From Spirochaetia bacterium (lineage in GTDB: Bacteria > Spirochaetota > Spirochaetia > UBA9216): a DNA stretch of 64,000 nucleotides. Below the pieces are notes generated by a model. That model had not been told where the DNA came from. It saw nothing but the letters and a program-made list of their open reading frames with translations, and searched no databases. A program made the position numbers and the translations under genes. The stretch lies in contig OZ223266.1 in NCBI GenBank assembly GCA_965140585.1, forward strand, positions 32,001 through 96,000, written 5' to 3'. Below are positions 3,887-18,432 of the stretch, in pieces (the first letter of the stretch is position 1; every line of letters starts with the position of its first letter).

Positions 3887-4022
3887 CACATAAAAAACAC
3901 AATATCAACAAAAACAGGACATTGGCCGCCGCGATTATTACATTGTTTACAATCAATTTACTATCAGTTAACTGGCGGTCTGCTAAGTCAAAGTATATTT
4001 AAAAAACTAACGGAGAGTGAAA

Positions 4023-4379: not shown

Positions 4380-4610
4380 AGGAAAAGACTGTCTATTTTA
4401 CTTGCATTGATTCTGGTTGTCCGCGCGGGGGCTTTTGCCGATGTTGACCTCAACGGAGAATTTATGTTCGGTGTAACAAACCTTGGTGCACTTTGTATTA
4501 GTGCGGGTTTTGTTTTAGCCGGCGGTGATGATATTTTAACTATTATCTATGGGAACAACGGAACAGTTGCCGGAAATGGTGCATCCCTCTTCTTTGATAT
4601 AGACTATTAA
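4380..4610 (+). pseudogene. Collapsed outer-membrane protein remnant
   Basis: In-frame (AGG)KRLSILLALILVVRAGAFA signal peptide, then DVDLNGEF, joined to a beta-strand C-terminus ending in an aromatic residue (ASLFFDIDY*), followed by a terminator. Confidence 0.5.
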
Positions 4611-4633
4611 GCAATCTTACCGATTAGTTGATG

Positions 4634-4660
4634 GGGCCTTCCTTATGGGGGTCCTTTTTT
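4634..4660 (+). terminator. Rho-independent terminator
   Basis: GGGCCTTCC-TTAT-GGGGGTCCT stem (with G-U pairs) followed by a T-run. Confidence 0.7.
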
Positions 4661-4667
4661 ATTAGAA

Positions 4668-4717
4668 TCTCAATTTGAAATTTCAATATGTAATGCAATA
4701 TGAAATGTAAATTGAAA
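4668..4717. promoter_or_regulatory. Putative upstream activator sites for the PrpR-type sigma54 activator
   Basis: Four tandem imperfect TTTCA-N3-TGAAA-like palindromes (TCTCAATTTGAAA, TTTCAATATGTAA, ATGCAATATGAAA, ATGTAAATTGAAA) about 110-160 bp upstream of the -24 box. Confidence 0.55.
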
Positions 4718-4824
4718 ATAAATTTTTAAAAATCGTATCAAGTAATTTCCCCTGAAAAAATTATAAAAGTATAAATCCCCATATAGCAATAAAATAAAAG
4801 TACATGAAATTTTCTTTTAGTTAC

Positions 4825-4840
4825 TGGCACGGTATTTGCA
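4825..4840 (+). promoter_or_regulatory. Sigma54 (-24/-12) promoter
   Basis: TGGCAC-GGTAT-TTGCA is an exact match to the TGGCAC-N5-TTGC consensus, 48 bp before the first operon gene. A sigma54 activator is encoded at the operon end. Confidence 0.88.
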
Positions 4841-4888
4841 ATAAGAACAATACTAATTTAATAGTTTATCTATGGAAGGTGCTATACA

Positions 4889-5767
4889 GTGAATGTAGGG
4901 TTTATAGGCTTTGGTGAAGCAGCATATTATGTTTCTATGGGTCTGAAGGATGAAGGCGTATCCGGAATTGTTGCTTACGATGCAATGCTGGAGCATCCTG
5001 TTGCCGGAAAGAAAATAAAACAAAGAGCACAGGAAAGCCGGGTTAAACTGCTTGTTTCTCCGGCAGATACGGTAGATACGACCGATTTCCTTTTTGTCGC
5101 AGTCCCTGCTGTGAATGCTCAGGATGTATGCAATGAAATTACTCCATTTCTAAAAGCAGGGCAGCTGTATATTGATGTGAGCGCTTCGACACCTAAAGTT
5201 AAAGAATCATTTGAAAAAATGGTAGAGAAATCGGGCGCACTATACGTGGATGCCGCTATGCTTGGTTCTCTTCCTCTGAACAGGCATAAGGTTCCCATAA
5301 CAGCCAGCGGAATCGGCGCTGAAAAATTCAAGGAAATAATGTCCAAGAAGGGTATGAATATCACCTGTGTCGGTTCTCAGGCTGGATCAGCCTCGGCAAT
5401 CAAGCTTATACGAAGTGTTTTCATGAAAGGTATTGCAGCACTCATGCTTGAAATGCTTGAAGGTGCTTATAGGTATGATGTGATCGATGAAGTTGTTTCT
5501 TCTCTCAGTGCATCTATGGATGGTATATCATTTGAAAGTCATTTAAAAAGACTTATTACGGGAACAGCTGTCCATGCAAAGAGGCGAGCCGAAGAATTGA
5601 ACGGCTCGGTTCAAATGCTGATGGATCGGAATGTAGATAATGAAATGGTTAAGGCATCAAAATATAAACATGAATATCTTGCCGAATGTCTATCAGGCGA
5701 ACAGGCGAAGGATGAGTATGAAGACATCCATTCAGTACTTGCTGCCATGAAGACAAAGCCGCAGTAA
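4889..5767 (+). CDS. NAD(P)-dependent oxidoreductase, 6PGDH/3-hydroxyisobutyrate DH-like with DUF1932-type C-terminus
   Basis: GFIGFGEAA Rossmann motif, YVDAAMLG, ASAIKLIRSVFMKG, HAKRRAEE. Confidence 0.82.
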   Translation: MNVGFIGFGEAAYYVSMGLKDEGVSGIVAYDAMLEHPVAGKKIKQRAQESRVKLLVSPADTVDTTDFLFVAVPAVNAQDVCNEITPFLKAGQLYIDVSASTPKVKESFEKMVEKSGALYVDAAMLGSLPLNRHKVPITASGIGAEKFKEIMSKKGMNITCVGSQAGSASAIKLIRSVFMKGIAALMLEMLEGAYRYDVIDEVVSSLSASMDGISFESHLKRLITGTAVHAKRRAEELNGSVQMLMDRNVDNEMVKASKYKHEYLAECLSGEQAKDEYEDIHSVLAAMKTKPQ

Positions 5768-5778
5768 AAGGAGAGCTT

Positions 5779-6480
5779 ATGCCGGTTGGTAAACGAATTT
5801 ATTTAAAGAGGGATCTGCCTGATCCTGAATTGGTAGCACAATTTAACAGCATACCTGCTTCAAATTGTGCAGATGTTATGGAAAGATCATGTGCTATGAA
5901 TCCCCGGATCCGGCTTATGAGCAGTCCGTCCAGACAGTGTATTGCAGGACCGGCCTTCACTGTCAAGGCAAGGGCCGGAGACAATCTTCTTATCCATGCG
6001 GCTCTAAATCTTGTAAGTGAAGGTGATATGCTGGTTATTTCAAATGAAGGTGATCAGACCCGTTCACTTATTGGTGAGGTTATGCTTGCTTATCTCTTTT
6101 ATACAAAGAAAATTGCCGGTATTATACTTGACGGCCCGATACGGGATATCGATGAAGTCCACAGCTGGAATTTTCCAATATATGCTACCGGCACAACCCC
6201 GGGCGGACCTTATAAGGAAGGTCCGGGTGAGATAAATGTTCCAATCTCCTGCGGAGAAATCAGTGTAAATCCCGGAGATATTATTCTGACTGATCCGGAT
6301 GGTGTTATTGTGATTCCAAGAAAGGATGCAGAAGTAACTCTGGAGAAGGCAAAAGCTTTCCAGGTTCAGGATGAGAAAAAACTGGCTGCAGCTAAAGACG
6401 GAACTGCAAACAGAGAATGGGTTGGAAAGCTGCTTGATGAAAAAGGTTTTGAACTGATAGACGAAGTCTATCATCCGTGA
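5779..6480 (+). CDS. RraA-family / HMG-CHA-type class II aldolase
   Basis: AGPAFTV..GDNL, GEVM, DGPIRD, GPYKEGPGEINVPI, VNPGDII..DPDGV. Confidence 0.87.
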   Translation: MPVGKRIYLKRDLPDPELVAQFNSIPASNCADVMERSCAMNPRIRLMSSPSRQCIAGPAFTVKARAGDNLLIHAALNLVSEGDMLVISNEGDQTRSLIGEVMLAYLFYTKKIAGIILDGPIRDIDEVHSWNFPIYATGTTPGGPYKEGPGEINVPISCGEISVNPGDIILTDPDGVIVIPRKDAEVTLEKAKAFQVQDEKKLAAAKDGTANREWVGKLLDEKGFELIDEVYHP

Positions 6481-6525
6481 AGGTATCAAAATAAAAATTA
6501 AAATAAAAACTATGGAGGTTTTTTA

Positions 6526-7515
6526 ATGAAAAGGATTTTATCATTTTTACTGATCCTTACAGTAAGTGTCGCCCTGATGGTAAGCTGTTCTGCTAAGTCG
6601 GATAAGACTTCAGCGGAAACCACAACGGAAAAAGCGATAAGCGCTGCAGAAAACTGGCCCGAGCAGCCGATCAATATCCTGGTACCGGCTAAAGCAGGAG
6701 GTGGTTCTGATATTATAACAAGAATCATAACAAAATATATTACTCAGGAAACCGGACAGGCTGTTGTCGTAACCAATGTTACCGGGTTATCAGGTTATGA
6801 ACTGGTTCGAAAACAGGAGCCGAATGGATATAATTATGTTTTCGGAATCACTGGTTTGCTCATCTCGGCAGCCCAGGGGCAGCTTGAATTTGGACATGAA
6901 GCATTTGACGCGGCTTTTACGCCGGGTATGGATTCTTCAAATGGTATCCTTGTTCGCGGAGATTCTCCGTATAAGACTCTTAAAGATCTTTTTGATGCGA
7001 TTGAAAAAGATCCGGAAAGCGTAACAGGCGGTATCTCTATGACCGGTTACCCCTATCTTTGTAGTCTCGCTATAGAAGATGCTCTTGATATCGACATGTA
7101 TTGCATTGATGCTGGAAATACATCAGAAAGATCGGTTGCACTCTTGGGCGGTCAGGTAGATTTTATCATTTCAGGTATGGCTGCTATTACCGGATATCTT
7201 GATTCGGGTGATTTTCGATATCTCGCAATTACTGCAGAAGAAAGAAATAAATTCCTTCCCGATGTTCCTACTTTCAAAGAAAGCGGGTATGATTTCGCTT
7301 TTGTAGATCAGGGTGGATATCTTCTCGCTCCTAAGGGTACGGATCCTGCTATTCTCGAGAAATTCAACAAATTATTTTATGAGAAGATTCAGACTAACCC
7401 TGATTATCAGAAGGAAATGTCCAAATTTGGTATGATTGATGTAAAATATACACCAGATGAGCTGAAAGTTGAATTGGATCACGCAGCAGAAGTATTTAAG
7501 AAATACCTGCAATAA
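6526..7515 (+). CDS. tctC: Tripartite tricarboxylate transporter substrate-binding lipoprotein (Bug/TctC)
   Basis: Lipobox LMVSC, WPEQPINILVPAKAGGGSD, PDVPTFKESG, APKGT. Confidence 0.9.
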   Translation: MKRILSFLLILTVSVALMVSCSAKSDKTSAETTTEKAISAAENWPEQPINILVPAKAGGGSDIITRIITKYITQETGQAVVVTNVTGLSGYELVRKQEPNGYNYVFGITGLLISAAQGQLEFGHEAFDAAFTPGMDSSNGILVRGDSPYKTLKDLFDAIEKDPESVTGGISMTGYPYLCSLAIEDALDIDMYCIDAGNTSERSVALLGGQVDFIISGMAAITGYLDSGDFRYLAITAEERNKFLPDVPTFKESGYDFAFVDQGGYLLAPKGTDPAILEKFNKLFYEKIQTNPDYQKEMSKFGMIDVKYTPDELKVELDHAAEVFKKYLQ

Positions 7516-7538
7516 AATAATTTTAAGGGATTTTTGAG

Positions 7539-8090
7539 ATGAAAAGCAAAATTGATAGTTTATTTTATAAGCTGGAAATTTATTTTTCTGCTTATCGGCT
7601 GATAGCACTCGGAATTATAATCGCATTGGTATCTCTTTTCATGTTGAATGAAACATCAGATTATGTTCAAAACGGAGGGCTTAATGTCGTCGATAATGCT
7701 GCTTTTGCTCCGCGCCTGATATTTAGCATTCTTTTTTTACTTGGGATTCTGATTTTTATTCAGGAATTGTTAAGGAATAAAGTCTTGCGAAAAGAGATAC
7801 TTAGCAGCGCCGTGGCAAAAGAAATAGTTGCAGGTAATCAAAAATCCCTGATTGTTCTGGGCAGTATATTGTTATTTATACTGCTCATGACTCAAATCGG
7901 CTTTATTTTGTCTTCAATAATTTATTTGATCTCTAATATGATCATAATGAATTCGAAGGAATCGAGAAATGTGAAAATGTACGCAATAATTGCAGTTATA
8001 GTTGCAGTTATAGTTTATTTTTGTTTTAAAGAATTTATCTATGTAAACCTGCCAATCGGGGCATTGTTTAAAGCAGTGTTGGGGAGATAA
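7539..8090 (+). CDS. tctB: Tripartite tricarboxylate transporter small permease
   Basis: Multiple TM helices, FAPRL and C-terminal VNLPIG. Lies between tctC and tctA. Confidence 0.85.
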   Translation: MKSKIDSLFYKLEIYFSAYRLIALGIIIALVSLFMLNETSDYVQNGGLNVVDNAAFAPRLIFSILFLLGILIFIQELLRNKVLRKEILSSAVAKEIVAGNQKSLIVLGSILLFILLMTQIGFILSSIIYLISNMIIMNSKESRNVKMYAIIAVIVAVIVYFCFKEFIYVNLPIGALFKAVLGR

Positions 8091-8091
8091 T

Positions 8092-9597
8092 ATGTTAGTT
8101 TCAACATTTTTAGGTTTAATGACACCGTTAAATATTACCCTGATGGTAGTTGGTGTAATCGTCGGTATTCTCTTTGGCGCAATTCCCGGATTGAGTTCAA
8201 CCATGGCGATCGCGTTGTTCCTGCCCGTCACCTTTGCGCTAGATGTGACAAGTGCCTTTGCACTTCTTATTGCCCTGTATATAGGCGGTGTTTCCGGGGG
8301 ATTGATTTCAGCTATTCTTATTAATATTCCCGGTTCGGCAATGTCGATAGCCACGACGTATGACGGTTCGCCAATGGCTGTAAAAGGTCATGCCCACAGG
8401 GCACTCGGAATAGGTATCGTTTTCTCAACACTTGGTACTATCGTGAGCCTCATTGTCCTTATTGCCGCTGCTCCTCCTCTTTCAAAGCTTACGATAAAGA
8501 TGAGTTCCTATGATTTCTTTGCGCTGACCCTGCTGTCGTTAACATTGATATCAGGAGTCTCCGGTAAGAATATGCTGCTTGGTTTATTATCCGGATTCAT
8601 GGGGCTTGCCATTGCGATGGTTGGTATCGCACCAATTGATGGAACGCCGCGTTTCACCTTCGGTGAAGTACAGCTGCTTAATGGATTTTCCCTGTTGCCA
8701 TCGGTTATTGGGTTATTTGCCGTAACTGAGATAATGAAGGCTGTCAGCAACGCTGATAAAAAATCGGAAGTAAAGGCTAAACCCGAAAAGGTCAGAGGCT
8801 TTGGGTTCTCTCTCCGGGAGTTTTTTGCTCAGGCAAAGAATTTTGTGATATCTTCTGTCATTGGAATAGTAATTGGATTTCTGCCGGGTATGGGTGGTTC
8901 CCTGGCTAACCAGGTTGCTTACGCGGCGGTGCAGAAGAACTCTAAGTACCCTGAGAAATTCGGAACTGGCATAATGGATGGTATAGTTGCATCGGAGACT
9001 TCGAATAACGCTTCCATAGGAGGCGCAATGATTCCCCTGCTTACGCTTGGTATTCCAGGTGATGGACCGACTGCGATGCTGCTCGGCGCATTTATGATCC
9101 ACGGGATTGTTCCAGGACCGCTTCTGTTTAAAACAAGCGGTTCGCTGGTAAATACAATCTTTGTAGCGTTGATTATATGTACTATTATTATGTTTTTCAT
9201 AGAATATTTCGGCTTACGGCTGTTTGTAAAGGCGTTGAATGTTCCAAAAGGCATACTCCTTCCGATTATACTGGTGCTATGCATTGTCGGTTCATATGCA
9301 AACAACAATAACATGTTTGATGTATGGACATTGCTGCTATTCGGTGTATTCGGTTTTTTGTTGTTTAAGATTGGAATACCAAGAGCACCGTTGGTTCTTG
9401 GCTTTGTTCTGGGGCCGTCAGTCGAAACAAATTTGCGGCGTGCAGTTCAGCACAGCCGGGGATCCATCATCCCTTTTCTGACCAGGCCCGTATGTGTAAC
9501 TTTGCTTACTCTGTGCCTTCTTATCATAGTTTTTGCATTTGTTTCTCAAATAAGGGCAGGTCGGGCAGAGAAGCGTGCAGCAGCTGCCGGAGAATGA
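8092..9597 (+). CDS. tctA: Tripartite tricarboxylate transporter large permease
   Basis: GAIPGL, ILINIPG, ETSNNA..GGAMIPLLTLGIPG. Confidence 0.93.
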   Translation: MLVSTFLGLMTPLNITLMVVGVIVGILFGAIPGLSSTMAIALFLPVTFALDVTSAFALLIALYIGGVSGGLISAILINIPGSAMSIATTYDGSPMAVKGHAHRALGIGIVFSTLGTIVSLIVLIAAAPPLSKLTIKMSSYDFFALTLLSLTLISGVSGKNMLLGLLSGFMGLAIAMVGIAPIDGTPRFTFGEVQLLNGFSLLPSVIGLFAVTEIMKAVSNADKKSEVKAKPEKVRGFGFSLREFFAQAKNFVISSVIGIVIGFLPGMGGSLANQVAYAAVQKNSKYPEKFGTGIMDGIVASETSNNASIGGAMIPLLTLGIPGDGPTAMLLGAFMIHGIVPGPLLFKTSGSLVNTIFVALIICTIIMFFIEYFGLRLFVKALNVPKGILLPIILVLCIVGSYANNNNMFDVWTLLLFGVFGFLLFKIGIPRAPLVLGFVLGPSVETNLRRAVQHSRGSIIPFLTRPVCVTLLTLCLLIIVFAFVSQIRAGRAEKRAAAAGE

Positions 9598-10415
9598 TTA
9601 TGGATATCACGGAAATTACAAAATTAACCAATAAGCGTCTTGCAGAACCATGGATTATAATGACAAAACCCTTCCATGTTGTAGGTAATATATATTTTGT
9701 TGGAACTTCCTGGGTATCATGTTTTCTTATTGAAACGGAAGAGGGCTTGATTTTAATTGATTGCGCTATGCAGGAAACAGCTTACCAGCTTATTGATGCC
9801 ATTCATCAGGTTGGGTTAAACCCGGGGAATATTAAGAAACTGTTTATTTCCCATGGTCATTTCGACCATTGCGGAGCAGCCCGAATTATTCAGGAAATGA
9901 CCGGTTGTGAGATTTGGCTCGGAAAAGACGATGAGTTCTTTTTCACAGAAAGACGGGATCTGATTCATTTTGAGCACACTGTTCCTGACTTTAAAATTAC
10001 CAATACCTATGATTATGATTCAGAATTTAATTTCGGAGGGACAATAATAAAGCCATTTCACTGCCCGGGGCATACTCCGGGTACAACCAGCTTTTTTATT
10101 GAAACCCAGAATGAAGGTAAAAATCTTACATGCGCAATGCATGGCGGGCTAGGCATTAATGGGATAAGTAAGCCTGAATTGATTGAAAACCGGCTGCCTG
10201 TGTCTCTTCATGATGATTACAGAAGGCAGCTTGAAGAAATGATGGAGAAGCATGTAGATATTGTTCTGCCTTCTCATGTAGGGCATGCTGTAGATTATGA
10301 TTTTCTGGGCCTTGGCTATGATACTTCCAGAGGCAGTGAAAAGTTTATTGATACGAATGCCTGGAGTAGAATGCTTTCATCCAAGCTGAAGCAGTTTGAG
10401 GAGAACTGCTGCTGA
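9594..10415 (+). CDS. Cytoplasmic MBL-fold metallo-hydrolase resembling subclass B3 beta-lactamases
   Basis: PFHVVGNIYFVG, SHGHFDH (HxHxDH), PGHTPG, LPSH. ATG overlaps the tctA stop (ATGA). No signal peptide. Confidence 0.85.
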   Translation: MIMDITEITKLTNKRLAEPWIIMTKPFHVVGNIYFVGTSWVSCFLIETEEGLILIDCAMQETAYQLIDAIHQVGLNPGNIKKLFISHGHFDHCGAARIIQEMTGCEIWLGKDDEFFFTERRDLIHFEHTVPDFKITNTYDYDSEFNFGGTIIKPFHCPGHTPGTTSFFIETQNEGKNLTCAMHGGLGINGISKPELIENRLPVSLHDDYRRQLEEMMEKHVDIVLPSHVGHAVDYDFLGLGYDTSRGSEKFIDTNAWSRMLSSKLKQFEENCC

Positions 10416-10436
10416 TTTAGAATTACTGGAAAAACT

Positions 10437-11573
10437 ATGTTTGACTTACTTATCAAAAACGGAAATCTATTGATATCCGGACAAGATTCGCCTGGAAACA
10501 GCGATATCGGGATCTCAGGGAATAAGATTGTCAGAATTGGAAAAATCTCTGCAACTGAATCAAATCACGTAATTGATGCTTCAGATTGTATAGTCAGTCC
10601 AGGCCTTATCGATTTTCATTTACATCTGGCTCCGCTTGCTGAAATAGGAGTATGCGGAGAGGCTGCATGTTTTCCGTCTGGTGTAACAACGGTTGTAGAC
10701 TGCGGTAGTGCAGGGGCCGGAACTTATGCCGGGCACAGACCGGCAATAGCCGCCAGTTCTCTAAACGTTTTTACCTTTATGCATGTCTGTTCAGCCGGGC
10801 TTGCTACAGGCCGCTATCTGGAAAATCCGGACCCGAAGTACTATGACCTTGAAAAAATTAAAGAATATTTTGAAAAGTGGGGAAGCCGGGAGCTTATTGG
10901 TCTTAAAATCAGGCAGGGCAAAGAGATAGTCGGTTCTCTTGGTCTTGAGCCGCTTAAGAAAACTATTAGGCTTGCTGAAGAACTAAATGTTCCCGTAATG
11001 GTTCATTGCTCAAATCCGCCGGGTTCAATGGATGATATCCTCAACCTGTTGAGAAAGGGTGATATTTTTACACATGCCTTTCAGGACAAGGGCAGCAGCA
11101 TTCTCGGTACGGACGGACGGATATCTGAATCTGCTAAATCCGCAAGGGAGCGGGGTGTTATTTTCGATGTAGCAAATGCGAATATTCATTTCTCATTCGA
11201 GGTTGCAAGGCAGGCCATTTCAGAAGGATTTCTTCCGGATACCATCAGTACTGATTTAACCACCAGAAGCTTATATCTTCGTCCGAACGTTTTTAATTTA
11301 TTGCACGTCCTGTCAAAATACATAAGCCTTGGATTATCTGTCAGGCAGGTTTTTGATATGTGTACTGTGAACCCCGCAAAAATAATCGGAAAAGCCGGAG
11401 TTACGGCTTCCCTGAAAGAAGGCGCTGCTGCCGATATAGCGGTTATTCGTAATATAAAAAAGGATGTCATTTTTGGAGATAGAACTGGAAACACACTGAA
11501 GGGGAATTCGTTTCTAAAAACCATGGCTACAATAAAGGATGGAAAACTTGTCTATCGTGACCAGGAATTCTAA
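10437..11573 (+). CDS. Amidohydrolase/deacetylase, dihydroorotase-like (EF_0837/Atu3266-type)
   Basis: PGLIDFHLH, GVTTVVDCGSAG, GLKIR, MVH, THAF, DTISTD. Confidence 0.85.
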   Translation: MFDLLIKNGNLLISGQDSPGNSDIGISGNKIVRIGKISATESNHVIDASDCIVSPGLIDFHLHLAPLAEIGVCGEAACFPSGVTTVVDCGSAGAGTYAGHRPAIAASSLNVFTFMHVCSAGLATGRYLENPDPKYYDLEKIKEYFEKWGSRELIGLKIRQGKEIVGSLGLEPLKKTIRLAEELNVPVMVHCSNPPGSMDDILNLLRKGDIFTHAFQDKGSSILGTDGRISESAKSARERGVIFDVANANIHFSFEVARQAISEGFLPDTISTDLTTRSLYLRPNVFNLLHVLSKYISLGLSVRQVFDMCTVNPAKIIGKAGVTASLKEGAAADIAVIRNIKKDVIFGDRTGNTLKGNSFLKTMATIKDGKLVYRDQEF

Positions 11574-11623
11574 AAACAATAAACAAATAATTAGTTAACA
11601 GTGAATACCATAAGGAGAACGGC

Positions 11624-13462
11624 ATGAGTAAAAAGCCGAAACTGGTGTCAACTCTGGACTACACCATTAGAATAGGTGGAGAAGGAGGAGATGGAGTTAT
11701 AAGCTGCGGTGAACTTCTTGCACAGGCTGCTGCACGTACGGAATTTCATGTTTTTACTTTTATTACCTATCCGTCAGAAATGAGGGGCGGATTTTCCATG
11801 ATTCAGATAAGGTTGAGGGATATAACAATTTATTCCATGGGAAGCAGTGTGGATTGTCTGCTTGTCTTCAATCAGGAGGCACTTCAAAATACCCGATCGG
11901 TACTCAGGGAAGGTGGAGTTCTGATATATGATCCGGACACGGTTGATGTAAGTGATATGAAAGACTGTCAGCTCAAACCCGTTCCATTTACTGCTCTTGC
12001 CCGGGAGACCAATGGGGTTGTTCTTGGTAAGAACGTGGTTGCTCTTGGTACGCTGGGCAGCGTCCTGGGAATTGATAAAAATTTACTTCAGGATTTGCTG
12101 AAAGAAAAATTCGGGAAAAAGGGTGCTGGTGTTATAGAAAAGAACAATAAAGCCCTTCAGGCTGGAATGGATGCGGCAGCCAGAATTGATATGCCGGTAA
12201 ATTTCAGAATTACAGACCTGAAACCTGCCGGTGAAGATTATATGTTTATTAGCGGTAATCAGGCTGTGGCCCTCGGTGCTATTGCTGCCGGCTGCAGGTT
12301 TACAGCCGGATATCCGATAACCCCTTCTACATCAATTTTTGAAACCCTAACCAGACTTATGCCGCTTGTCGGCGGCAGGGCTATTCAGATGGAGGATGAG
12401 ATCGCTGCTATCAGTGCTGTGATTGGAGCTTCATTCGCCGGCGAAAAGGTTATTATACCAACCTCCGGACCGGGGCTGATGCTTATGACAGAGCAGCTTA
12501 GTCTTGCATCGATGATCGAAGTTCCGATGGTGCTTGTAGATGTACAGCGCGCCGGGCCTTCTACAGGTCTTCCTACAAAAACTGAACAGTCAGACCTTAA
12601 GTTTGCTGTTTATGGTGCGGCCGGGGACAGTCCAAGAATTATCATGGCGCCAACCACAGTGGAAGATACTTTCTATCAAACTATCAGGGCTTTTAATCTG
12701 TCAGAAAGATATCAGATTCCGGTAATTCTGCTTCTTGATCAGTCCATAGGATACCGGAAAGCAACTGTTAAAATGCCTAACTTTGATCAGATCAAAGAAC
12801 TTGATCAGATGGAGTGCTTTAAAAGTCTGCGTATTCCTCATGCCAATAAAATAGATCTCAGGCGAAGAAGGGAACCCGACTCAAATGATCTTGAAGATTA
12901 TAAGCGGTATCTTGATACCCCGGATGGAGTCAGTCCTATTGCAAGACCAGGTACTCCCGGAGGTCAGTATCTTGCTACCGGTCTGGAGCATGATGAATAC
13001 GGGCATACCGATCAATCACCACTTAATCATCAGAAAATGAGCCTTAAGAGATTCAGGAAGATGGAGGCAATCTCCAAAGAGTTTGAAAAAAACCCGATAG
13101 AGTTTTACGGCGATCCTGACGCAACAATTGGGGTTATTGGCTGGGGATCTACCGAGGGGGCTATCCGTGAAGCCAGATACATGGCTGAAAATAACGGTAT
13201 TAAAATTCGTCACCTCCATCCGCATACTATAAGTCCTCTTCCCCACAGGCAAATCTCCCTGTTTCTGGCAAGGCTGGATCATCTTATTGTAGTAGAAGAA
13301 AATCTTACCGGACAATTTACAAATTATCTTAAAGCCAAGTTCAGGATTAATCCTCAGAATATACGTAAATGTCAGGGTATACCTCTGACCGCAGAAGAAA
13401 TTTATGAAGGAATTGAAAAGGTAGCGAGGTTGGACAATGATGAACACAGTAAATTCTTTTAA
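11624..13462 (+). CDS. korA: 2-oxoacid:ferredoxin oxidoreductase alpha subunit (gamma-alpha fusion)
   Basis: GGEGGDG, SEMRGG, AGYPITPST, EDEIAA, TSGPG, QRAGPSTGLPTK. Confidence 0.92.
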   Translation: MSKKPKLVSTLDYTIRIGGEGGDGVISCGELLAQAAARTEFHVFTFITYPSEMRGGFSMIQIRLRDITIYSMGSSVDCLLVFNQEALQNTRSVLREGGVLIYDPDTVDVSDMKDCQLKPVPFTALARETNGVVLGKNVVALGTLGSVLGIDKNLLQDLLKEKFGKKGAGVIEKNNKALQAGMDAAARIDMPVNFRITDLKPAGEDYMFISGNQAVALGAIAAGCRFTAGYPITPSTSIFETLTRLMPLVGGRAIQMEDEIAAISAVIGASFAGEKVIIPTSGPGLMLMTEQLSLASMIEVPMVLVDVQRAGPSTGLPTKTEQSDLKFAVYGAAGDSPRIIMAPTTVEDTFYQTIRAFNLSERYQIPVILLLDQSIGYRKATVKMPNFDQIKELDQMECFKSLRIPHANKIDLRRRREPDSNDLEDYKRYLDTPDGVSPIARPGTPGGQYLATGLEHDEYGHTDQSPLNHQKMSLKRFRKMEAISKEFEKNPIEFYGDPDATIGVIGWGSTEGAIREARYMAENNGIKIRHLHPHTISPLPHRQISLFLARLDHLIVVEENLTGQFTNYLKAKFRINPQNIRKCQGIPLTAEEIYEGIEKVARLDNDEHSKFF

Positions 13463-14297
13463 CAGGGAAGGGGTTAAGCCGGTATGGTGTCCGGGCTGCG
13501 GTGATTATGGCGTGCTTACGGCCCTTAAAAAGTCACTTGCCGAGCTGCAGCTTTCGCCTGAAGAAATCATGGTGATATCGGGTATAGGATGTTCTGGGCG
13601 GTTTTCTCACTACCTTAATACTTACAGCCTTCACGGTACTCACGGCAGGGCTCTTCCGACAGCTTGCGGGGCAAAGGCTGCCAGTCCGGAAATGACCGTG
13701 CTTGCAGTAGGCGGTGATGGAGACGGTTTGTCGATCGGCGGAGGCCATATAAGTCATACTGCAAGAAGGAATGCAAACATCACTTATCTTCTTTTAGATA
13801 ATCATATTTACGGACTCACAAAGGGGCAGACATCTCCAACTACTCCTGTCGGCTATCAGGGGAAAACCTCTCCGTATGGAGTGACAGAAGAAGAGCTGAA
13901 CCCGATACCGGTTTTTCTTACATATGGTGCTTCATTTGTAGCCCGGGGGCACAGTTTTGATATTAAGCAGCTTACACATCTCATTACAGAGGGGATAAAG
14001 CATCCCGGATTTTCAATTATCTATGTTCATTCGCCCTGTGTGACTCACCCTTCACTCGAATGGAAGAAGCTTAAAGAAAAGATCTGCAGTCTTCCTGAAG
14101 GATTTCCTGTTCAGGATATTATGACCGCCATGCCCTATGCTTTTTTAAAGGATAAGCTTTATACAGGAATATTCTACCAGGTCAGAAAGCCGACTTTGGA
14201 AGAGCGGCTGGTGGAGGTTCAGGAACGGGCTCTTGAAAGGCAGAAGGGCGAGGGGCTTGATGTTTCAGTCAGACATATTATGAACAGGTTCCGATGA
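13437..14297 (+). CDS. korB: 2-oxoacid:ferredoxin oxidoreductase beta subunit
   Basis: WCPGCGD, SGIGCS, HGRA, TPP motif GGDGD..DN, YGLTKGQTSP, SPCV. Confidence 0.92.
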   Translation: MMNTVNSFNREGVKPVWCPGCGDYGVLTALKKSLAELQLSPEEIMVISGIGCSGRFSHYLNTYSLHGTHGRALPTACGAKAASPEMTVLAVGGDGDGLSIGGGHISHTARRNANITYLLLDNHIYGLTKGQTSPTTPVGYQGKTSPYGVTEEELNPIPVFLTYGASFVARGHSFDIKQLTHLITEGIKHPGFSIIYVHSPCVTHPSLEWKKLKEKICSLPEGFPVQDIMTAMPYAFLKDKLYTGIFYQVRKPTLEERLVEVQERALERQKGEGLDVSVRHIMNRFR

Positions 14298-14364
14298 TTT
14301 CGCAACGAAACAATATTGAGAACTTAAATTTATTCTTAACAGATTTTTATACAGGAGCGATTGT

Positions 14365-15732
14365 ATGAATACAGTTGAATATATTGCCGGATATATAGAA
14401 AGAGCTAGAAAAGCTCAGAAGGAATTTGAGGCCTGGTCGCAAGGGCAGGTGGATGAGGCCGTAAGGCTGATTGCAAAAGTGGTATATGATAATGCTGAAT
14501 ATCTTGCAGGGATGGCAGTAGCTGAAACCGAAATGGGAAATGTTCCTGATAAAATTCTAAAAAACAGAGGAAAGGCCGGTATAATCTGGAACAGTCTCAA
14601 AGGAAAAAAATCAAGAGGCATAATTAAGAGGGATGCGCAAACGGGAATTACTGAAATTGCAAAACCTGTCGGAGTAATTGCTGCAATTACTCCTTGTACA
14701 AACCCTGTTGTTACCCCGATGTGTAATGCAATGTTTGCGCTGAAGGGTGGAAACGCAGTGGTTATCACTCCCCATCATCGCTCATATAAAACAAGTGAAG
14801 AAACTGTCAGGCTTATAAATGAAGAACTGCAGAAGATTGGTGCTCCTGAAAATCTTGTTCAGATTGTTGATCATCAGTCCAGGGAAAATACCCGGGAGCT
14901 TATCTCTGCGGCAGATACTGTTGTGGCGACCGGGGGAATGAGTATGGTCAAGGCTGCATACAGCAGCGGAAAGCCGGCCCTTGGCGTTGGCGCGGGAAAT
15001 GTGCAGTGCATCATAGACCGGGATGTTGATTTCAGTGAAATGGTTCCAAAGATTGTTAACGGCAGAAGTTTCGACTATGGAATTATATGTTCGGGAGAGC
15101 AGACTGTAATTGTTCACGAAGAGGACCTGGATGCCGTCATGGAAGAGTTTAGAAAAAACAGCGGATATGTTGTTTTTGATGAACAGGAAGTTGGCTCCTT
15201 CCGGAAGGCTATATTCCCAAACGGTAAAATGAATCCTGATCTTGTTGGTCAGTCAACAGCAAGGGTGGCAGAACTGGCAGGTACTGAAATTCCTGAAGAT
15301 ACCAGAGTAATTCTGCTTAAAGCCGCCGGAGCGGGAAGAGAAGACTTTCTTTCCAAGGAAAAAATGTGCCCGGTGCTTTCAATTTATACATATAAAAATT
15401 TTGATGAAGCAATAGATATTGCAGAAGCAAATCTGGAATATGAAGGAGCCGGCCATTCTGTTTCGCTGCACAGCCACAGTGAAGAACATATTGAAGCGGC
15501 CGCTCTTAGGCTGAAGGCAAGTAGGTTTGTAATTAATCAGCCCTCTTCAACCAGCGCAGGCGGGAGCTGGTATAACGGTTTTTCTCCGACAACGACTCTG
15601 GGCTGCGGTTCGTGGGGGAATAACAGTATTTCTGAGAATCTGACATATACTCATATGATCAATGTTTCAAGAATCGGATATTTTATGAAAGATGCGGAAA
15701 TACCTTCAGAGGATATCCTTTGGAATAGTTAA
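14365..15732 (+). CDS. sucD: CoA-acylating aldehyde dehydrogenase, succinate-semialdehyde dehydrogenase (clostridial SucD-like)
   Basis: PCTNP..TPM.NAMFALK, ATGG, GVGAGN, FDYGIICSGEQ, EKMCP, TLGCGSWGNNSISEN. Confidence 0.8.
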   Translation: MNTVEYIAGYIERARKAQKEFEAWSQGQVDEAVRLIAKVVYDNAEYLAGMAVAETEMGNVPDKILKNRGKAGIIWNSLKGKKSRGIIKRDAQTGITEIAKPVGVIAAITPCTNPVVTPMCNAMFALKGGNAVVITPHHRSYKTSEETVRLINEELQKIGAPENLVQIVDHQSRENTRELISAADTVVATGGMSMVKAAYSSGKPALGVGAGNVQCIIDRDVDFSEMVPKIVNGRSFDYGIICSGEQTVIVHEEDLDAVMEEFRKNSGYVVFDEQEVGSFRKAIFPNGKMNPDLVGQSTARVAELAGTEIPEDTRVILLKAAGAGREDFLSKEKMCPVLSIYTYKNFDEAIDIAEANLEYEGAGHSVSLHSHSEEHIEAAALRLKASRFVINQPSSTSAGGSWYNGFSPTTTLGCGSWGNNSISENLTYTHMINVSRIGYFMKDAEIPSEDILWNS

Positions 15733-15754
15733 AAATGCTAAGTTCATTTATTAT

Positions 15755-15782
15755 AAAGGCCGGGGTGATCCGGCCTTTTTTT
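15755..15782. terminator. Rho-independent terminator between convergent genes
   Basis: AAAGGCCGG-GGTGAT-CCGGCCTTTTTTT. Confidence 0.85.
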
Positions 15783-15794
15783 ATTCATGTGACA

Positions 15795-17720
15795 TCAGAT
15801 TTCTGAATTAAAAAGTTTTTCTTTTCTCCATAAAGTAGTAATGCTTATTCCAAGTATTGCGGCCGCCATTTCCCTGTTCCCTTTTGTCTGCTGCAGAACT
15901 TCAAGAATCAGTTTCTTTTCCATTGTTTTGAGCAGGCCTTCGGTTTGAGGCGTCGCATCTGAAATTGATTTTAGAAAGTCTGTTTTAAAGCTGTCTAAGC
16001 CTTGACTCGACTTTGCAGGCTGTTCGATAATATCTTCTCTTGAAGAAATTAATTCCGAAATAAGTTTTTCATCAATCTGATTTTTATTATTAAGAACATT
16101 TGCTCTTTCGGTAACATTCTTCAGCTGCCTTACGTTGCCGGGCCATGAATAGTTAGAGATGTATTTTTCAGCTTTTTCTGTTAGAAAATTGTAGTTTTGA
16201 AGATAATGGCTGAATAAGGCCGGAATATCTTCTTTTCTTTCCCTTAACGGGGGAATTTTCAGCTCGAGCACACAAATCCTGTAATATAAATCCTCTCTGA
16301 AATTGTTGTTTTTTACTTCTTCATAAAGATCTTTATTACATGCTGCAATTATTCTGATGTCGATAGGCACTATTCTGTTATCGCCTATTCGTGTTATCTC
16401 TTTTTCCTGAAGAACTCTCAGTAGTTTGGCCTGTACATCCGGTGGTATTTCTGTAATTTCATCCAGAAAAACCGTACCCCTATGAGCCTGTTCGAAGACC
16501 CCTGCTTTTCCTCCGGTTTTAGCTCCTGTAAAGGCTCCTTCAGCATATCCGAACAGTTCACTTTCGAGGATGCTTTTGGGAAGAGCTGCGCAGTTGATTG
16601 CAATAAAGGGGTTAAGCTTTCGTATGCTGTCGTTATGGATGCTTTGAGCAAACATCTCTTTTCCGGTTCCTGTTTCACCGGTAAGCAGGATTGTACTTTC
16701 TGTTTTAGCGTATAGCTTGGCAGTGTCGATAGTCTTATGGATTGTCTTTGATTCTCCAATTATATTTGAGAAGTTTATTTTTGCGTAATGACCTCTGCCT
16801 ATCTGCTTCTTTCTGATCTTTGAATCAATAATCTGTATATTGGTTTCTTCCTGTATCGATATGACGGCTCCGTTGATCTGATTATTGATGATTATAGGCA
16901 GACAGCTGTATACCAGCGAGAGCCTGTTGATTGTAATAAGCTCATCATAAACTGGTTTTCCTGACTGAATGGTTTTTTGTATATTGGTTGTGTTTATTAA
17001 AGTCTCTATATAAGTTTTCTCTTCTTCGGCCTCACGCTGCAGCAGTGCTTTAGCTATTTTGTTGATATTCAGAATTTTCCCCGAGTTATCAATACCAATA
17101 ATCCCTTCAGAGGTGCTGTCCAGTAATGTTGAAATTAAACTGTACTGTTTTTCCCTTTCCTCTTCGACATATAGACTGTACAGAGCTTCGTCAATTGCAA
17201 GCTCAACTTCCGATTCATCAGGATAAATGGAATAGAAGGGCATGTTGTTGCTGATGCAGATTTCCCTTAATTGAAAACCTCCGATAAATGCTTCTGCGCC
17301 GATTTCTCTGGCTTTTGTAAAGGCATCTTTGAATTCTCTTGCATCATCAACCTGAAACACCAGAAGTGATTCGTTCATTATGGAATTAAACTTATTAGCA
17401 ATATTGCAGAATTGTGAAAAACCTATTGCGGCAACCTTGTTATAACTTGTACTTGTCTTTCTGACAGCCAGGAAAAAACTAAGAAAACTGTGTCTGATAT
17501 CGATGATTGGCATATCAAGATTTTCTCTAAGCAGTGCCGCGCTTCCTCCCCGGCAGACAAGAACTTTTGTTCCGTTTTTCTGACATTCCTTAGCTTTTTC
17601 AAGAGCCGTATGAGTGGTTAGTTCATAAACAGGTATTCCGGATATCTGCAGCTTATTTAATACATATTCACAACTTTGAGACATACCAGGGGTAGTTGAA
17701 AATATGACTATTTTATTCAT
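15795..17720 (-). CDS. Sigma54-dependent transcriptional activator, PrpR type (PrpR_N-PAS-AAA-Fis HTH)
   Basis: VCRGGSA N-terminal motif, GETGTGKE, ESELFGY..GAFTGA, FLDE, WPGNVRQL, C-terminal HTH. Confidence 0.92.
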   Translation of the reverse strand: MNKIVIFSTTPGMSQSCEYVLNKLQISGIPVYELTTHTALEKAKECQKNGTKVLVCRGGSAALLRENLDMPIIDIRHSFLSFFLAVRKTSTSYNKVAAIGFSQFCNIANKFNSIMNESLLVFQVDDAREFKDAFTKAREIGAEAFIGGFQLREICISNNMPFYSIYPDESEVELAIDEALYSLYVEEEREKQYSLISTLLDSTSEGIIGIDNSGKILNINKIAKALLQREAEEEKTYIETLINTTNIQKTIQSGKPVYDELITINRLSLVYSCLPIIINNQINGAVISIQEETNIQIIDSKIRKKQIGRGHYAKINFSNIIGESKTIHKTIDTAKLYAKTESTILLTGETGTGKEMFAQSIHNDSIRKLNPFIAINCAALPKSILESELFGYAEGAFTGAKTGGKAGVFEQAHRGTVFLDEITEIPPDVQAKLLRVLQEKEITRIGDNRIVPIDIRIIAACNKDLYEEVKNNNFREDLYYRICVLELKIPPLRERKEDIPALFSHYLQNYNFLTEKAEKYISNYSWPGNVRQLKNVTERANVLNNKNQIDEKLISELISSREDIIEQPAKSSQGLDSFKTDFLKSISDATPQTEGLLKTMEKKLILEVLQQTKGNREMAAAILGISITTLWRKEKLFNSEI

Positions 17721-17824
17721 CCTGTTATCCTTTAAAGCAATAAGTAGTAGTTTATCTCAATTTTCAGGATTTATAAATCAGTAATTAAATTTGTTCACAT
17801 CTGAATAAAGCGGTAGTATAGTTG

Positions 17825-17853
17825 TGATGTCGGTTGTTCAACAACTGACATCA
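17825..17853. promoter_or_regulatory. Palindromic GntR/FadR-type operator
   Basis: TGATGTCGGTTGTT-C-AACAACTGACATCA (14-bp arms, 1 mismatch) with core GTTGT-N3-ACAAC, upstream of a FadR-family gene. Confidence 0.6.
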
Positions 17854-17937
17854 TATAAGCAATAATATTTTATAAAAGAACATATTTGGGAAAGCCGCTT
17901 TAAGAATCTGAATGTGGGAAACTAAGTATATAAACAA

Positions 17938-18432
17938 ATGATGGAAAAGATTATCAATAATGTCTGGAACCCCGGTTCAAAGATTCCGTTAGAGAATGAG
18001 TTATGTATAAATCTTGGTGTCTGCAGACATACAATCCGGGCTGTTCTAAACAAGCTGAATGCCCTGGGACTTTTTGAAACGAATCATGATGAAGGTGCTT
18101 TTGTTAAGAAACTTGAACCGTCACGTCAATATATCTTAACTCTCTTGTTTCTGTTGTTTTCTTGGGAAAGCATAAATATCGAACAATTATGGAATTCCGA
18201 AAAGGTATTGAAGTTGAAGCAATATGGCTGGTTGCAAAATGTTACTGAAGAAAATATTGCTGAGCTTCAGCTAATTGAAGATGAATTAACAAAGAACAAA
18301 GATTATATTGAAAGTTATGCAGAATATGATATTGACTTCCATGTGGCAATTTCAAAAGCTTCAAAAAATCAAATGTTCTTGCAGACCATGAATATTATTA
18401 AGGTAATACTTTCTGCTCAGCTGCATGAGTAA
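17938..18432 (+). pseudogene. Degraded FadR/GntR-family regulator
   Basis: wHTH GSKIPLENELC..GVCRHTIR and FCD motif DIDFHVAI..ASKN. The middle is scrambled and both ends are truncated. Confidence 0.75.

Follow-up and report, generated by a model that had tools for sequence, protein, structure and literature searches.

A sigma-54-type operon of a Spirochaetia bacterium that may join a widespread, putative hydroxy-polycarboxylate cassette to a lineage-specific KorAB–SucD extension

Introduction

Parts of several described systems for the uptake and breakdown of carboxylates meet in an operon that we analyzed in a 64,000-nucleotide stretch of DNA from a Spirochaetia bacterium (GenBank assembly GCA_965140585.1, contig OZ223266.1, positions 32,001 to 96,000 of the forward strand; hereafter the window). 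The operon comprises ten genes and is faced by a convergent regulator gene. Its control region recalls the prpBCDE genes of Salmonella and E. coli, which have a sigma-54 promoter and are governed by PrpR, an enhancer-binding protein with a PrpR_N sensor; the archetypal PrpR sensor responds to the tricarboxylate 2-methylcitrate. Its transporter genes recall the TctCBA system of citrate uptake, which has the three-component architecture of all tripartite tricarboxylate transporters (TTT), such as those served by BugD, AdpC and the terephthalate-binding protein. Its hydrolase and lyase recall the LigI–LigJ–LigK route of protocatechuate 4,5-cleavage and gallate breakdown in Sphingobium and Pseudomonas, in which the lactone of a di- or tricarboxylate is opened by an enzyme of the amidohydrolase superfamily and the last step is carried out by an RraA-fold, Mg-dependent aldolase known as HMG/CHA aldolase for its action on 4-hydroxy-4-methyl-2-oxoglutarate and 4-carboxy-4-hydroxy-2-oxoadipate, with pyruvate and oxaloacetate as products.

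Biochemical work on these families, cited here from excerpts of the papers, provides landmarks for comparison. The HMG/CHA aldolase catalyzes both aldol cleavage and the decarboxylation of oxaloacetate by way of a pyruvate enolate, which is stabilized by Arg123, and its metal is bound by Asp124 and Glu199 (PMC5065237, excerpt). Another member of the RraA family, FlDet of the oxidative alginate route of Flavobacterium, is a 2-keto-3-deoxy-aldarate dehydratase/decarboxylase (PMC8563752, excerpt). In SucD, a CoA-acylating succinate-semialdehyde dehydrogenase, Cys242 and His364 are catalytic, and Lys70 and Ser243 are ligands of the distal carboxylate (PMC10249356, excerpt). The 2-oxoacid:ferredoxin oxidoreductases (OFORs) that have the two-subunit architecture of KorAB include archaeal enzymes of broad specificity, which act on pyruvate, 2-oxobutyrate, glyoxylate and 2-oxoadipate (PMC13768988, excerpt).

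Here we describe how the operon of the window compares with these systems. The reading that we prefer, at a little less than an even chance, is that of a sigma-54 catabolic operon built in two layers, the first a cassette for a hydroxy-polycarboxylate that recurs in many bacteria and the second a KorAB–SucD extension found in one lineage.

Results and Discussion

A recurrent cassette with a lineage-specific extension

To sample related loci, an alignment of amidohydrolase homologues was run against a single genome from each species, and the best 80 of 381 relatives were kept (numbered with the prefix L). Genes were counted by tblastn, using as queries the window proteins and representatives of recurrent partner genes, and three clusters of antisense open reading frames (ORFs; c10, c14 and c18) were left out of all counts. 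Unless a total of 80 is given, the numbers below refer to the 44 loci that extend at least 6 kb either side of the amidohydrolase gene, with which all 80 loci agree. TctA was found at 37 of the 44 loci, and a di- or tricarboxylate carrier of some kind (TTT, CitMHS, DASS or an unnamed membrane protein) at 43. RraA was present at 36 loci, and each of these 36 also had a dehydrogenase, which was either the DUF1932 enzyme seen in the window (16 loci) or a D-2-hydroxyacid dehydrogenase of the 2-Hacid_dh family (24 loci); one or the other occurred at 38 loci and both together at only two. Regulators of the LysR type (24 loci) and PrpR-like regulators (15 loci) were both common. In contrast, KorA, KorB and SucD were each found at a single locus, L001.

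These counts led us to revise two claims of an earlier, sequence-only reading of this DNA. That reading had treated the ten genes as one pathway. Since korAB and sucD stand with the cassette in the window and in L001 only, that is, at one of the 80 related loci, they are to be regarded as a lineage-specific extension, and the ten genes do not constitute one conserved pathway. It had also proposed two hydrolyses, but the gene for the metallo-beta-lactamase-fold (MBL) hydrolase is present at just 10 of the 44 loci, so the MBL is an accessory and a second hydrolysis is not a core feature. As for the neighborhood of DUF1932 dehydrogenase, RraA and amidohydrolase that it had singled out, a core of hydrolase, RraA and dehydrogenase does recur, with DUF1932 often replaced by 2-Hacid_dh.

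A tree of the 35 2-Hacid_dh proteins resolved three groups. Members of clade 1 (L011–L019) take the place of DUF1932, in the gene order PrpR, dehydrogenase, RraA, and none of their loci has a DUF1932 gene. Members of clade 2, from gut Clostridia, adjoin RraA or the hydrolase, and 1 of the 18 rows in this clade shares its locus with DUF1932. Clade 3 is paired with a DmpG-like aldolase (HMGL-like; 220 bits with PRK08195 versus a cut-off of 229), which was found at three of the 80 loci, and stands alongside DUF1932 at L005 and L007. The replacement of DUF1932 by a D-2-hydroxyacid dehydrogenase points to a redox step between a hydroxyacid and an oxoacid.

Where TctA is of the window type (at least 60% identity), the next gene encodes a related MBL (46% identity or more) in 10 of 12 loci, the exceptions being L002 and L003; at L014 both types of TTT are present. 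A minimal unit of LysR, CitMHS, MBL and hydrolase genes, lacking RraA, occurs at L063, L064, L067 and L071. One 279-residue database protein, P0120, combines an Amidohydro_1 with a Lactamase_B domain (Pfam) and shares 81% identity with half of the window amidohydrolase; it may be an MBL–hydrolase fusion or the mis-called junction of two adjacent genes.

The hosts of the cassette are Spirochaetes, Bacillota, Synergistetes and Fusobacteria, many of them anaerobes of gut, rumen and sediment, and there is one instance on a plasmid of Pantoea agglomerans (NZ_CP083808, 240640–246952; L082, 5849–12161), where a hydroxyacid dehydrogenase, an RraA family protein, a DASS symporter, a metallo-dependent hydrolase and a sigma-54 regulator are annotated. 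More distant cog3964 genes, the family of the window amidohydrolase, were found in other contexts in Klebsiella (with DgaE and a 2-keto-3-deoxy-6-phosphogluconate aldolase), Rhizobium and Thermomicrobium. In the literature open to search, which excludes subscription-only work, we found no description of the cassette and no matching pathway, in keeping with the earlier remark that the combination is not a described one. A term search in the main text of a study of the Clostridiales sigma-54 regulon gave no mention of tricarboxylate, amidohydrolase, RraA or TctA (PMC6615313).

Enzymes of the cassette

The RraA protein aligned with the HMG/CHA aldolase of P. putida (3noj; E 3.4e-25) in such a way that R122 and D123 correspond to Arg123 and Asp124, and the equivalents of Asn71, His75 and Lys147 of that enzyme are also kept. 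Across 39 aligned sequences, 76 columns are at least 95% conserved, R122 and D123 among them. The retention of the catalytic Arg–Asp pair and of the other active-site residues supports its identification as a probable RraA-type aldolase, which was how the sequence-only reading had named it. Its best NCBIfam match was the uncharacterised subfamily PRK06201 (227 bits versus a cut-off of 231), and it scored below the equivalog cut-offs for LigK/PcmE (TIGR02798, 114.4 versus 304.5 bits; NF006731, 128.2 versus 179).

For the DUF1932 dehydrogenase the nearest structures were 3qsg, 4ezb and 1i36, for none of which is a function known, and the ESM Atlas returned generic names only. A representative of the 2-Hacid_dh proteins was equally close to glyoxylate reductases (2dbq, 5aov) and to phosphoglycerate dehydrogenases. 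The affinity to glyoxylate reductases suits an order of steps like that of GarL and GarR, in which the lyase comes first: RraA would cleave a 4-hydroxy-2-oxoacid to pyruvate and glyoxylate, tartronate semialdehyde or succinate semialdehyde, and the DUF1932 or 2-Hacid_dh enzyme would reduce the aldehyde to glycolate, glycerate or 4-hydroxybutyrate and so balance the redox of a fermentation. Also in accord with this order, the DUF1932 protein has the fold of the beta-hydroxyacid dehydrogenases and weak matches to models of 3-hydroxyisobutyrate dehydrogenase, tartronate-semialdehyde reductase and L-threonate dehydrogenase and to 2-hydroxymethylglutarate dehydrogenase, and one Atlas cluster has been auto-named as a tartronate semialdehyde reductase family. 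However, its scores with the named reductases are all far below the cut-offs, hydrolysis would have to yield a 4-hydroxy-2-oxoacid on its own, neither a glycerate kinase nor any other follow-up gene recurs among the clusters of the 80 loci, and in the window the reductase would face competition from SucD for the aldehyde. We therefore regard a reductase acting behind the lyase as distinctly unlikely.

The amidohydrolase has six metal ligands (H61, H63, K157, H190, H213 and D273) that were invariant in the 24 sequences compared. It scored below equivalog cut-offs (PRK12394, 391.7 versus 442 bits; a second model, 227.6 versus 432). Its predicted structure, with a confidence score (pLDDT) of 91, was most similar in fold to 8je0 (36% identity) and 8wzy (32%), followed by 2ogj and 2ics. 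As both of the best folds carry only the title 'A novel amidohydrolase', no function can be transferred from them, and identity to proteins of the Atu3266 and EF_0837 type (2ogj and 2ics) was only 26–32% in the Foldseek alignments. Atu3266 (2ogj, cog3964) is said to hydrolyze esters of the acetyl-(R)-mandelate type and neither dihydroorotate nor adenine.

The hydrolase lies in the branch of the dihydroorotases, hydantoinases and allantoinases, and the structure closest to it was deposited both as 'Amidase' and as 'A novel amidohydrolase'. It might accordingly break a C–N bond, in an N-acyl or N-carbamoyl derivative or a cyclic amide or ureide of an acidic amino acid (resembling dihydroorotate, hydantoin-propionate, pyroglutamate or an opine lactam), and the cassette would then belong to amino-acid fermenters, which its hosts often are (Acidaminococcus, Acidaminobacter, Fusobacterium, Peptoniphilus, C. 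symbiosum, Synergistaceae). Such a substrate is improbable in our view, given that the loci share no recurrent aminotransferase, ammonia-lyase or amino-acid dehydrogenase and that the constant partners of the hydrolase, a dehydrogenase of hydroxyacid type and RraA, need a hydroxy- or oxoacid rather than an amino acid.

The MBL gene listed by the sequence-only reading is present. Its start was corrected from 9492 to an ATG at 9594 that overlaps the stop codon of tctA (ATGA), with an alternative at 9600. Read from the corrected start, the protein lacks a signal peptide and is therefore cytoplasmic. The zinc ligands are in place, with an SHGHFDH (HxHxDH) motif and conservation of H87, D91, H92, H160 and H228. 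We considered whether the protein is a subclass B3 beta-lactamase and ruled this out on the lack of a signal peptide and on a score below the B3 cut-off (NF033105, 149.8 versus 240 bits).

Transporter and genomic context

TctC, TctB and TctA are encoded together and all scored above the Pfam gathering thresholds, making this a TTT system. The structures nearest to TctC were BugD and other binding proteins of TTT systems (best BugD match, 7.2e-28), but the relationship to proteins of known ligand is only distant and the ligand is not transferable. Transporters of the cassette in other loci belong to the TTT, CitMHS or DASS families. At two loci from Spirochaetia metagenome-assembled genomes (MAGs) whose hydrolases are 73–75% identical to that of the window, L002 (15540–20935) and L003 (2529–4837), the cassette sits among genes for CitXG, CitE/CitF/CitC, aconitase and a monomeric isocitrate dehydrogenase (IDH), and the IDH gene at L003 has a sigma-54-like promoter of its own, along with a site resembling an upstream activating sequence (UAS). 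At L005 (12445–17585) a second PrpR-like gene and a sigma-54 promoter (14475) lie ahead of genes for a MatC/CitMHS carrier and a two-subunit, LeuCD-like enzyme of the aconitase family, beside the cassette. Taken together, the transporter families, the PrpR_N sensor and the citrate, aconitase and IDH context point to a tricarboxylate or a related hydroxy-polycarboxylate as the substrate. The same context makes 2-oxoglutarate, the expected substrate of KorAB, a plausible end product.

Promoter, putative operator and regulator

The promoter element TGGCACGGTATTTGCA sits 48 nt ahead of the GTG start of the first gene and is the sole exact match to the sigma-54 consensus, TGGCAC-N5-TTGCW, in the 64-kb window. 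As the number of matches is not above chance (two with at most one mismatch, versus 2.22 expected for the window), the weight of this promoter derives from its position and conservation and not from the pattern count. A PrpR-like gene flanks the cassette at 16 loci (L001–L007, L009, L011–L015 and L017–L019), and 14 of them carry, immediately upstream of the first cassette gene, an element of the form TGGCAY-N5-YTGCH; of the other two, L003 has a variant of the element and L017 no strict match. An additional sigma-54 element is found ahead of tctC at L015 and L018. The second, one-mismatch match in the window (TGGAACCCATGTTGCA, 23142–23157) is within a LarA-like (Lar_N) ORF and is probably a chance match.

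An inverted repeat, TTTCA-N3-7-TGAAA, was sought with at most one mismatch between -250 and -40 of the related promoters. At least one site was present at 15 of 15 promoters and at least two at 13, usually as a pair approximately 20 bp apart, versus a background of ~10–12% (368 hits among 3000 random windows, 307 among 3000 shuffles). The two adjacent palindromes of the window's upstream region are imperfect and of the TTTCA-N3-TGAAA type. By this comparison TTTCA..TGAAA is a putative operator. Both elements that the sequence-only reading had picked out ahead of the operon, a consensus -24/-12 promoter and tandem UAS-like palindromes, are thus borne out by their recurrence in related loci.

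The activator has a Sigma54_activat domain (PF00158, 228 bits), an HTH_8 domain (41.9 bits) and, in translation, a GAFTGA loop. What it shares with PrpR is the PrpR_N domain only (88.8 bits), and its scores with the PrpR equivalog models are below the cut-offs (TIGR02329, 335 versus 499.2 bits; NF011953, 319 versus 703). Judged by these predicted domains, it is a PrpR_N-type regulator and not PrpR itself. No rpoN gene was found within the 64-kb window.

KorAB and SucD

The structure nearest to KorA was the 2-oxoglutarate:ferredoxin oxidoreductase (OGOR) of Magnetococcus (6n2n; E 2.2e-127), and both subunits scored above the cut-offs for two-subunit OFORs (TIGR03710, 628.4 versus 482.75 bits; TIGR02177, 272.9 versus 261.9). 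After the protein of L001, the nearest homologues of KorA are spirochaetal and 70–74% identical, and JGI names homologues as 2-oxoglutarate enzymes. CPGCGD, GIGC and GDG motifs were recognized by eye in the translation of KorB. SucD matched the enzyme of C. kluyveri (8CEI) over its full length with 537 bits (E 2.6e-160) and keeps K66, K70, T112, C242, S243, H364 and T395, with Ser in place of T365. The earlier identification of this protein as SucD-like, which remains a prediction from sequence, is strong, as the score is high and C242, H364, K70 and S243 are all conserved.

The scheme of the sequence-only reading gave these enzymes separate substrates. Worked out in full, RraA would be an aldolase whose substrate is a 4-hydroxy-2-oxoacid, for example 4-hydroxy-2-oxoheptanedioate; of the products, pyruvate would go by way of OFOR to acetyl-CoA and succinate semialdehyde by way of SucD to succinyl-CoA, in a manner that resembles the DmpG/DmpF pair of aldolase and acylating dehydrogenase, and the DUF1932 enzyme would either make the 2-oxo group beforehand or reduce surplus aldehyde. 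The scheme accords with the aldolase-like active site predicted for RraA and with a SucD that, having kept K70 and S243, is probably specific for C4 carboxy-acyl and carboxy-aldehyde compounds; both end products would be CoA thioesters, able to yield ATP, and the three loci with a DmpG-like aldolase and its own 2-Hacid_dh clade indicate that the system does recruit pairs of pyruvate aldolase and dehydrogenase. Nevertheless, the core pathway cannot depend on SucD or KorAB, which are absent from 79 of the 80 related loci, the cassette lacks a hydratase or any other enzyme able to form a 4-hydroxy-2-oxoacid, and KorA is nearest to OGOR and not to pyruvate:ferredoxin oxidoreductase. Moreover, no compound that occurs naturally in anoxic habitats is known to us from which hydrolysis would give 4-hydroxy-2-oxoheptanedioate, and we count this against the scheme. 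On balance we judge this division of products between OFOR and SucD to be unlikely.

Gene layout and selection

The ten genes, like the regulator gene, are all intact and of the families that the sequence-only reading had given them, according to their ORFs and to Pfam and NCBIfam searches, and they are followed, again as that reading had it, by a terminator and a convergent activator gene of the PrpR type (Table 1). An Rfam search of 3900–18500 returned nothing at gathering score, neither a riboswitch nor any other RNA element.

Table 1. Coordinates of the operon, its control elements and the convergent regulator gene in the window
Feature	Coordinates	Strand	Evidence or remark
Intrinsic terminator-like hairpin and T-run	4633..4655	+	Closes the decayed unit upstream and shields the operon from it
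Upstream activating region (putative)	4668..4712	.	Palindromes at 4668–4680 and 4681–4693; further copy of the repeat at 4696–4712
Sigma-54 (-24/-12) promoter TGGCACGGTATTTGCA	4825..4840	+	Exact consensus; identical in L001
NAD(P)-dependent dehydrogenase, 292 aa, GTG start	4889..5767	+	Pfam NAD_binding_2 and DUF1932; ratio of nonsynonymous to synonymous substitution rates (dN/dS) 0.054
RraA-like protein, 233 aa, in the family of class II (metal-dependent) pyruvate aldolases and beta-keto-acid decarboxylases	5779..6480	+	Pfam 139.5 bits
TctC substrate-binding protein, probable lipoprotein signal (..MVSC)	6526..7515	+	PF03401, 94.8 bits
TctB small membrane subunit	7539..8090	+	PF07331, 62.1 bits
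TctA large membrane subunit	8092..9597	+	PF01970, 473.6 bits
Cytoplasmic B3-like MBL-fold hydrolase	9594 (or 9600)..10415	+	Pfam, NCBIfam
cog3964 / EF_0837-type binuclear metallo-amidohydrolase, 378 aa	10437..11573	+	NCBIfam PRK12394, 391.7 bits
OFOR alpha subunit, KorA type, domains III-I-II fused	11624..13462	+	TIGR03710, 628.4 bits
OFOR beta subunit, KorB type, binding thiamine pyrophosphate (TPP) and [4Fe-4S]	13437..14297	+	TIGR02177, 272.9 bits
CoA-acylating succinate-semialdehyde dehydrogenase / succinyl-CoA reductase, SucD-like, 455 aa	14365..15732	+	8cei, E 2.6e-160
Intrinsic terminator, operon end	15755..15778	+	10-bp stem, 6 GC pairs, T-run
Sigma-54 enhancer-binding activator: PrpR_N, PAS, AAA+, Fis-type helix-turn-helix	15795..17720	-	Pfam

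The closest relative, L001, is from a Spirochaetia MAG and is collinear with 2029–18731 of the window. Identity is 88.4% over 4479–18429, with 37 gap columns only, the 11 proteins (those of the ten genes and the regulator) are 89–98% identical to their counterparts, and dN/dS ranges from 0.017 to 0.105 for all 11 genes. The zones that adjoin the operon (2747–4650 and 17791–18821) are in decay, and their counterparts in L001 are intact. Alignment coordinates show the upstream flank to be shorter than that of L001 by 115, 111, 188, 260 and 773 bp. In comparison with L001, a histidine kinase is split across two frames and has lost residues 310–347, an OmpR-type response regulator retains only residues 1–48, 107–130 and 217–236, a 349-residue protein only residues 14–49 and 297–349, and an ABC ATPase only residues 132–200, and a GntR/FCD regulator gene is frameshifted. 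We ruled out sequencing errors as the source of these pseudogenes, because deletions of 111–773 bp are involved and not merely frameshifts. That the operon has stayed intact amid pseudogenes, with such low dN/dS values, led us to conclude that it is under selection, as the sequence-only reading had suggested from its intactness.

The gene layout and the substitution rates also bear on whether korAB and sucD belong with the cassette at all. They could be genes of central metabolism that a rearrangement has stranded behind it, to be transcribed by read-through or from a promoter of their own that was not recognized, with no role in the cassette. Several observations would fit such a chimera: the combination is seen in the window and L001 alone, the nearest relatives of KorA are ordinary spirochaetal enzymes, the gene order at L002 and L003 is different (PrpR co-oriented, no MBL after TctA), and the genome is rearranging and losing genes. 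Against this stand the tight gaps, of 50 nt between the amidohydrolase gene and korA and 67 nt between korB and sucD, each with a ribosome-binding site; scans for hairpins and promoters found no terminator or second sigma-54 promoter that would separate korAB–sucD from the cassette, the sole terminator being that after sucD. Furthermore, the arrangement has been kept across ~12% nucleotide divergence, the dN/dS values of korAB–sucD are 0.017–0.051, with those of KorB (0.017) and KorA (0.031) the lowest of the operon, and the logic of the products fits the aconitase and IDH context of the sister lineages. A chance juxtaposition of this kind is, in our estimation, highly improbable.

Fragmentary genes are not restricted to the borders of the operon. 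Others were noted at 19132–19617, 31026–32663, 33578–34912, 51116–53068, 58660–59570 and 59598–61407. Of a 3-hydroxyacyl-CoA dehydrogenase only the C-terminal half is there; an Hsp90 and an ORF of the acetate kinase family are partial, a chemoreceptor is divided between a dCache ORF and an MCP ORF, a Peripla_BP_2 binding protein is likewise split, and FecCD and ABC genes are truncated. These fragments suggest pseudogenisation throughout the genome, or possibly errors of assembly. At 19630–22955 the decayed GntR gene is followed downstream by genes for a 7-bladed lactonase family protein and a 6-phosphogluconate dehydrogenase (steps of the oxidative pentose-phosphate route). At 38374–39992 a gene for HcyBio (sulfur-incorporation homocysteine biosynthesis) is followed by a NIL-ferredoxin gene. 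At 53625–62185 a partly broken group of genes, in which a TonB-dependent receptor with a Plug domain adjoins FecCD, ABC and Peripla_BP_2 genes and CbiZ, looks like an uptake cluster of the corrinoid or iron-chelate type, which is unusual for a spirochaete-like genome.

A proposed pathway

In the two-layer reading, a carboxylate ligand would bind the PrpR_N-type activator, which would then act from the TTTCA..TGAAA palindromes ~130–160 bp upstream of the -24/-12 promoter. TctCBA would import a hydroxy di- or tricarboxylic acid in the form of its lactone or O-acyl ester (less likely of an amide), which the amidohydrolase, with or without the MBL, would then open. The dehydrogenase would convert the freed (D-)2-hydroxy group, which in an acid of the malate type is also a 3-hydroxy group, to give a 2-oxoacid in an NAD(P)-dependent step, and RraA would break the C3–C4 or C3–carboxyl bond through a metal-stabilized enolate, so that aldol cleavage or beta-decarboxylation would yield pyruvate or 2-oxoglutarate. 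In the second layer, confined to this lineage, KorAB would take a 2-oxoacid, most likely 2-oxoglutarate, to succinyl-CoA and reduced ferredoxin, and SucD would link succinyl-CoA with succinate semialdehyde, either as a sink for NADPH or as an entry for an aldehyde product. We infer the substrate class, the order of the steps, the direction of SucD and the co-transcription of the ten genes from the comparisons described above.

The argument for the first layer is that its dehydrogenase, which always accompanies RraA, appears to be interchangeable with a D-2-hydroxyacid dehydrogenase. The hydroxyl of a malate-type acid is alpha to one carboxylate and beta to the other and would suit both dehydrogenase families, and the cassette would be self-contained if its products are central 2-oxoacids. 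For the second layer, a serial route, in which 2-oxoglutarate goes to succinyl-CoA and this is then linked in either direction with succinate semialdehyde, suits the context of L002 and L003 at least as well as separate fates for pyruvate and succinate semialdehyde do. We speculate further that the cassette represents an anaerobic pathway, so far unrecognised, for hydroxy-tricarboxylates of the isocitrate, hydroxycitrate or homoisocitrate type that come from plants or hosts as lactones or O-acyl esters. In such a pathway a dehydrogenase and an RraA-fold beta-decarboxylase/aldolase would replace the usual single oxidative decarboxylase of the IDH type; in this specific form the proposal is doubtful, and somewhat unlikely to hold.

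A number of points weigh against the two-layer reading. There is no characterised close homologue of the hydrolase, the DUF1932 dehydrogenase or the RraA subfamily. To our knowledge, the hydrolysis of acetyl-(R)-mandelate-type esters is the only activity of a cog3964 protein known in vitro. Reductases of glyoxylate, hydroxypyruvate, tartronate semialdehyde and succinate semialdehyde occur in both dehydrogenase families, and, with the closeness of 2-Hacid_dh to glyoxylate reductases, this means that the dehydrogenase could act after the lyase. With ordinary isocitrate as the freed acid, the dehydrogenase and RraA would duplicate the work of IDH. Only two or three loci have the citrate, aconitase and IDH neighbors, which could be a coincidental clustering. 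KorA and KorB score below the cut-offs of the OGOR-specific NCBIfam models (268.5 versus 579 bits; 197 versus 364), and, given the broad specificity found within their architecture, the substrate may be a 2-oxoacid other than 2-oxoglutarate. Finally, the sample is centered on the hydrolase, and its scope is RraA and dehydrogenase pairs in the company of that gene; their frequency elsewhere lies outside it.

If the proposal of a hydroxy-tricarboxylate lactone or ester is correct, it would provide the first physiological roles for DUF1932, the PRK06201 subfamily of RraA and cog3964, and would define a new sigma-54 regulon and operator across Spirochaetes, Bacillota of gut and rumen, Synergistetes, Fusobacteria and Pantoea. 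These three families form one tightly co-occurring and strongly selected unit, which is also present in the genetically tractable Pantoea, and the regulator, promoter and putative operator defined by comparison make the question of the substrate directly testable. The cassette may reveal the use by anaerobes of abundant but overlooked carboxylates of plants or hosts, and its korAB–sucD extension would be a clear case of a catabolic cassette coupled to an energy metabolism that depends on ferredoxin and CoA, within a genome otherwise losing genes.

Comparison with described systems

The LigI–LigJ–LigK route shares with the cassette a hydrolase of the amidohydrolase superfamily and an RraA-fold lyase, whose Arg–Asp pair is kept in the window protein. 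It differs in that the cassette has no hydratase, its dehydrogenase is obligatory, its hosts are anaerobes without ring-cleavage genes, and its RraA scores are far below the LigK cut-off. The hydrolases differ also: that of the window is of the Amidohydro_1/cog3964 type, whereas LigI and LigJ belong to the Amidohydro_2 family. With Atu3266 and EF_0837 (cog3964) the window hydrolase shares its fold and binuclear site, and 2ogj and 2ics, like 8je0, were among its best matches in both sequence and fold. In FlDet there is a precedent for RraA-fold enzymes that decarboxylate 2-oxo-dicarboxylates on the way to 2-oxoglutarate, a likeness drawn from its description and not from sequence, but FlDet works in an aerobe together with an NAD-dependent alpha-ketoglutarate semialdehyde dehydrogenase (PMC8563752, excerpt). 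An aldarate or uronate route of the FlDet type was set aside, as no dehydratase or cycloisomerase recurs in the loci; nor do aldarate dehydratase or uronate genes accompany the cassette here.

The pairing of a sigma-54 promoter with a PrpR_N-bearing enhancer-binding protein is that of PrpR–prpBCDE, but here the targets are not prp genes and the regulator has an extra PAS segment and falls below the PrpR cut-off. Similarly, the three components of the transporter are those of TctCBA and other TTT systems, but the window TctC is only distant in sequence and is probably lipid-anchored. SucD is similar in full length to the enzyme of the succinate and 4-hydroxybutyrate fermentation of C. kluyveri and keeps its catalytic and carboxylate-ligand residues; in contrast to C. 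kluyveri, neither the operon nor the rest of the 64-kb window encodes a 4-hydroxybutyrate dehydrogenase, CoA-transferase or dehydratase, and sucD is joined to OFOR genes and a sigma-54 cassette. KorAB has the alpha–beta architecture of the Magnetococcus marinus OGOR, with domain III at the N-terminus of alpha, an architecture found as well in archaeal enzymes that use many 2-oxoacids (PMC13768988, excerpt). All of the protein families are known already, and regulation of this kind is usual in catabolic operons under sigma-54. The novelty lies in the combination and its breadth, in the non-orthologous exchange of dehydrogenases, in the operator motif and in the lineage-specific link with OGOR and SucD.

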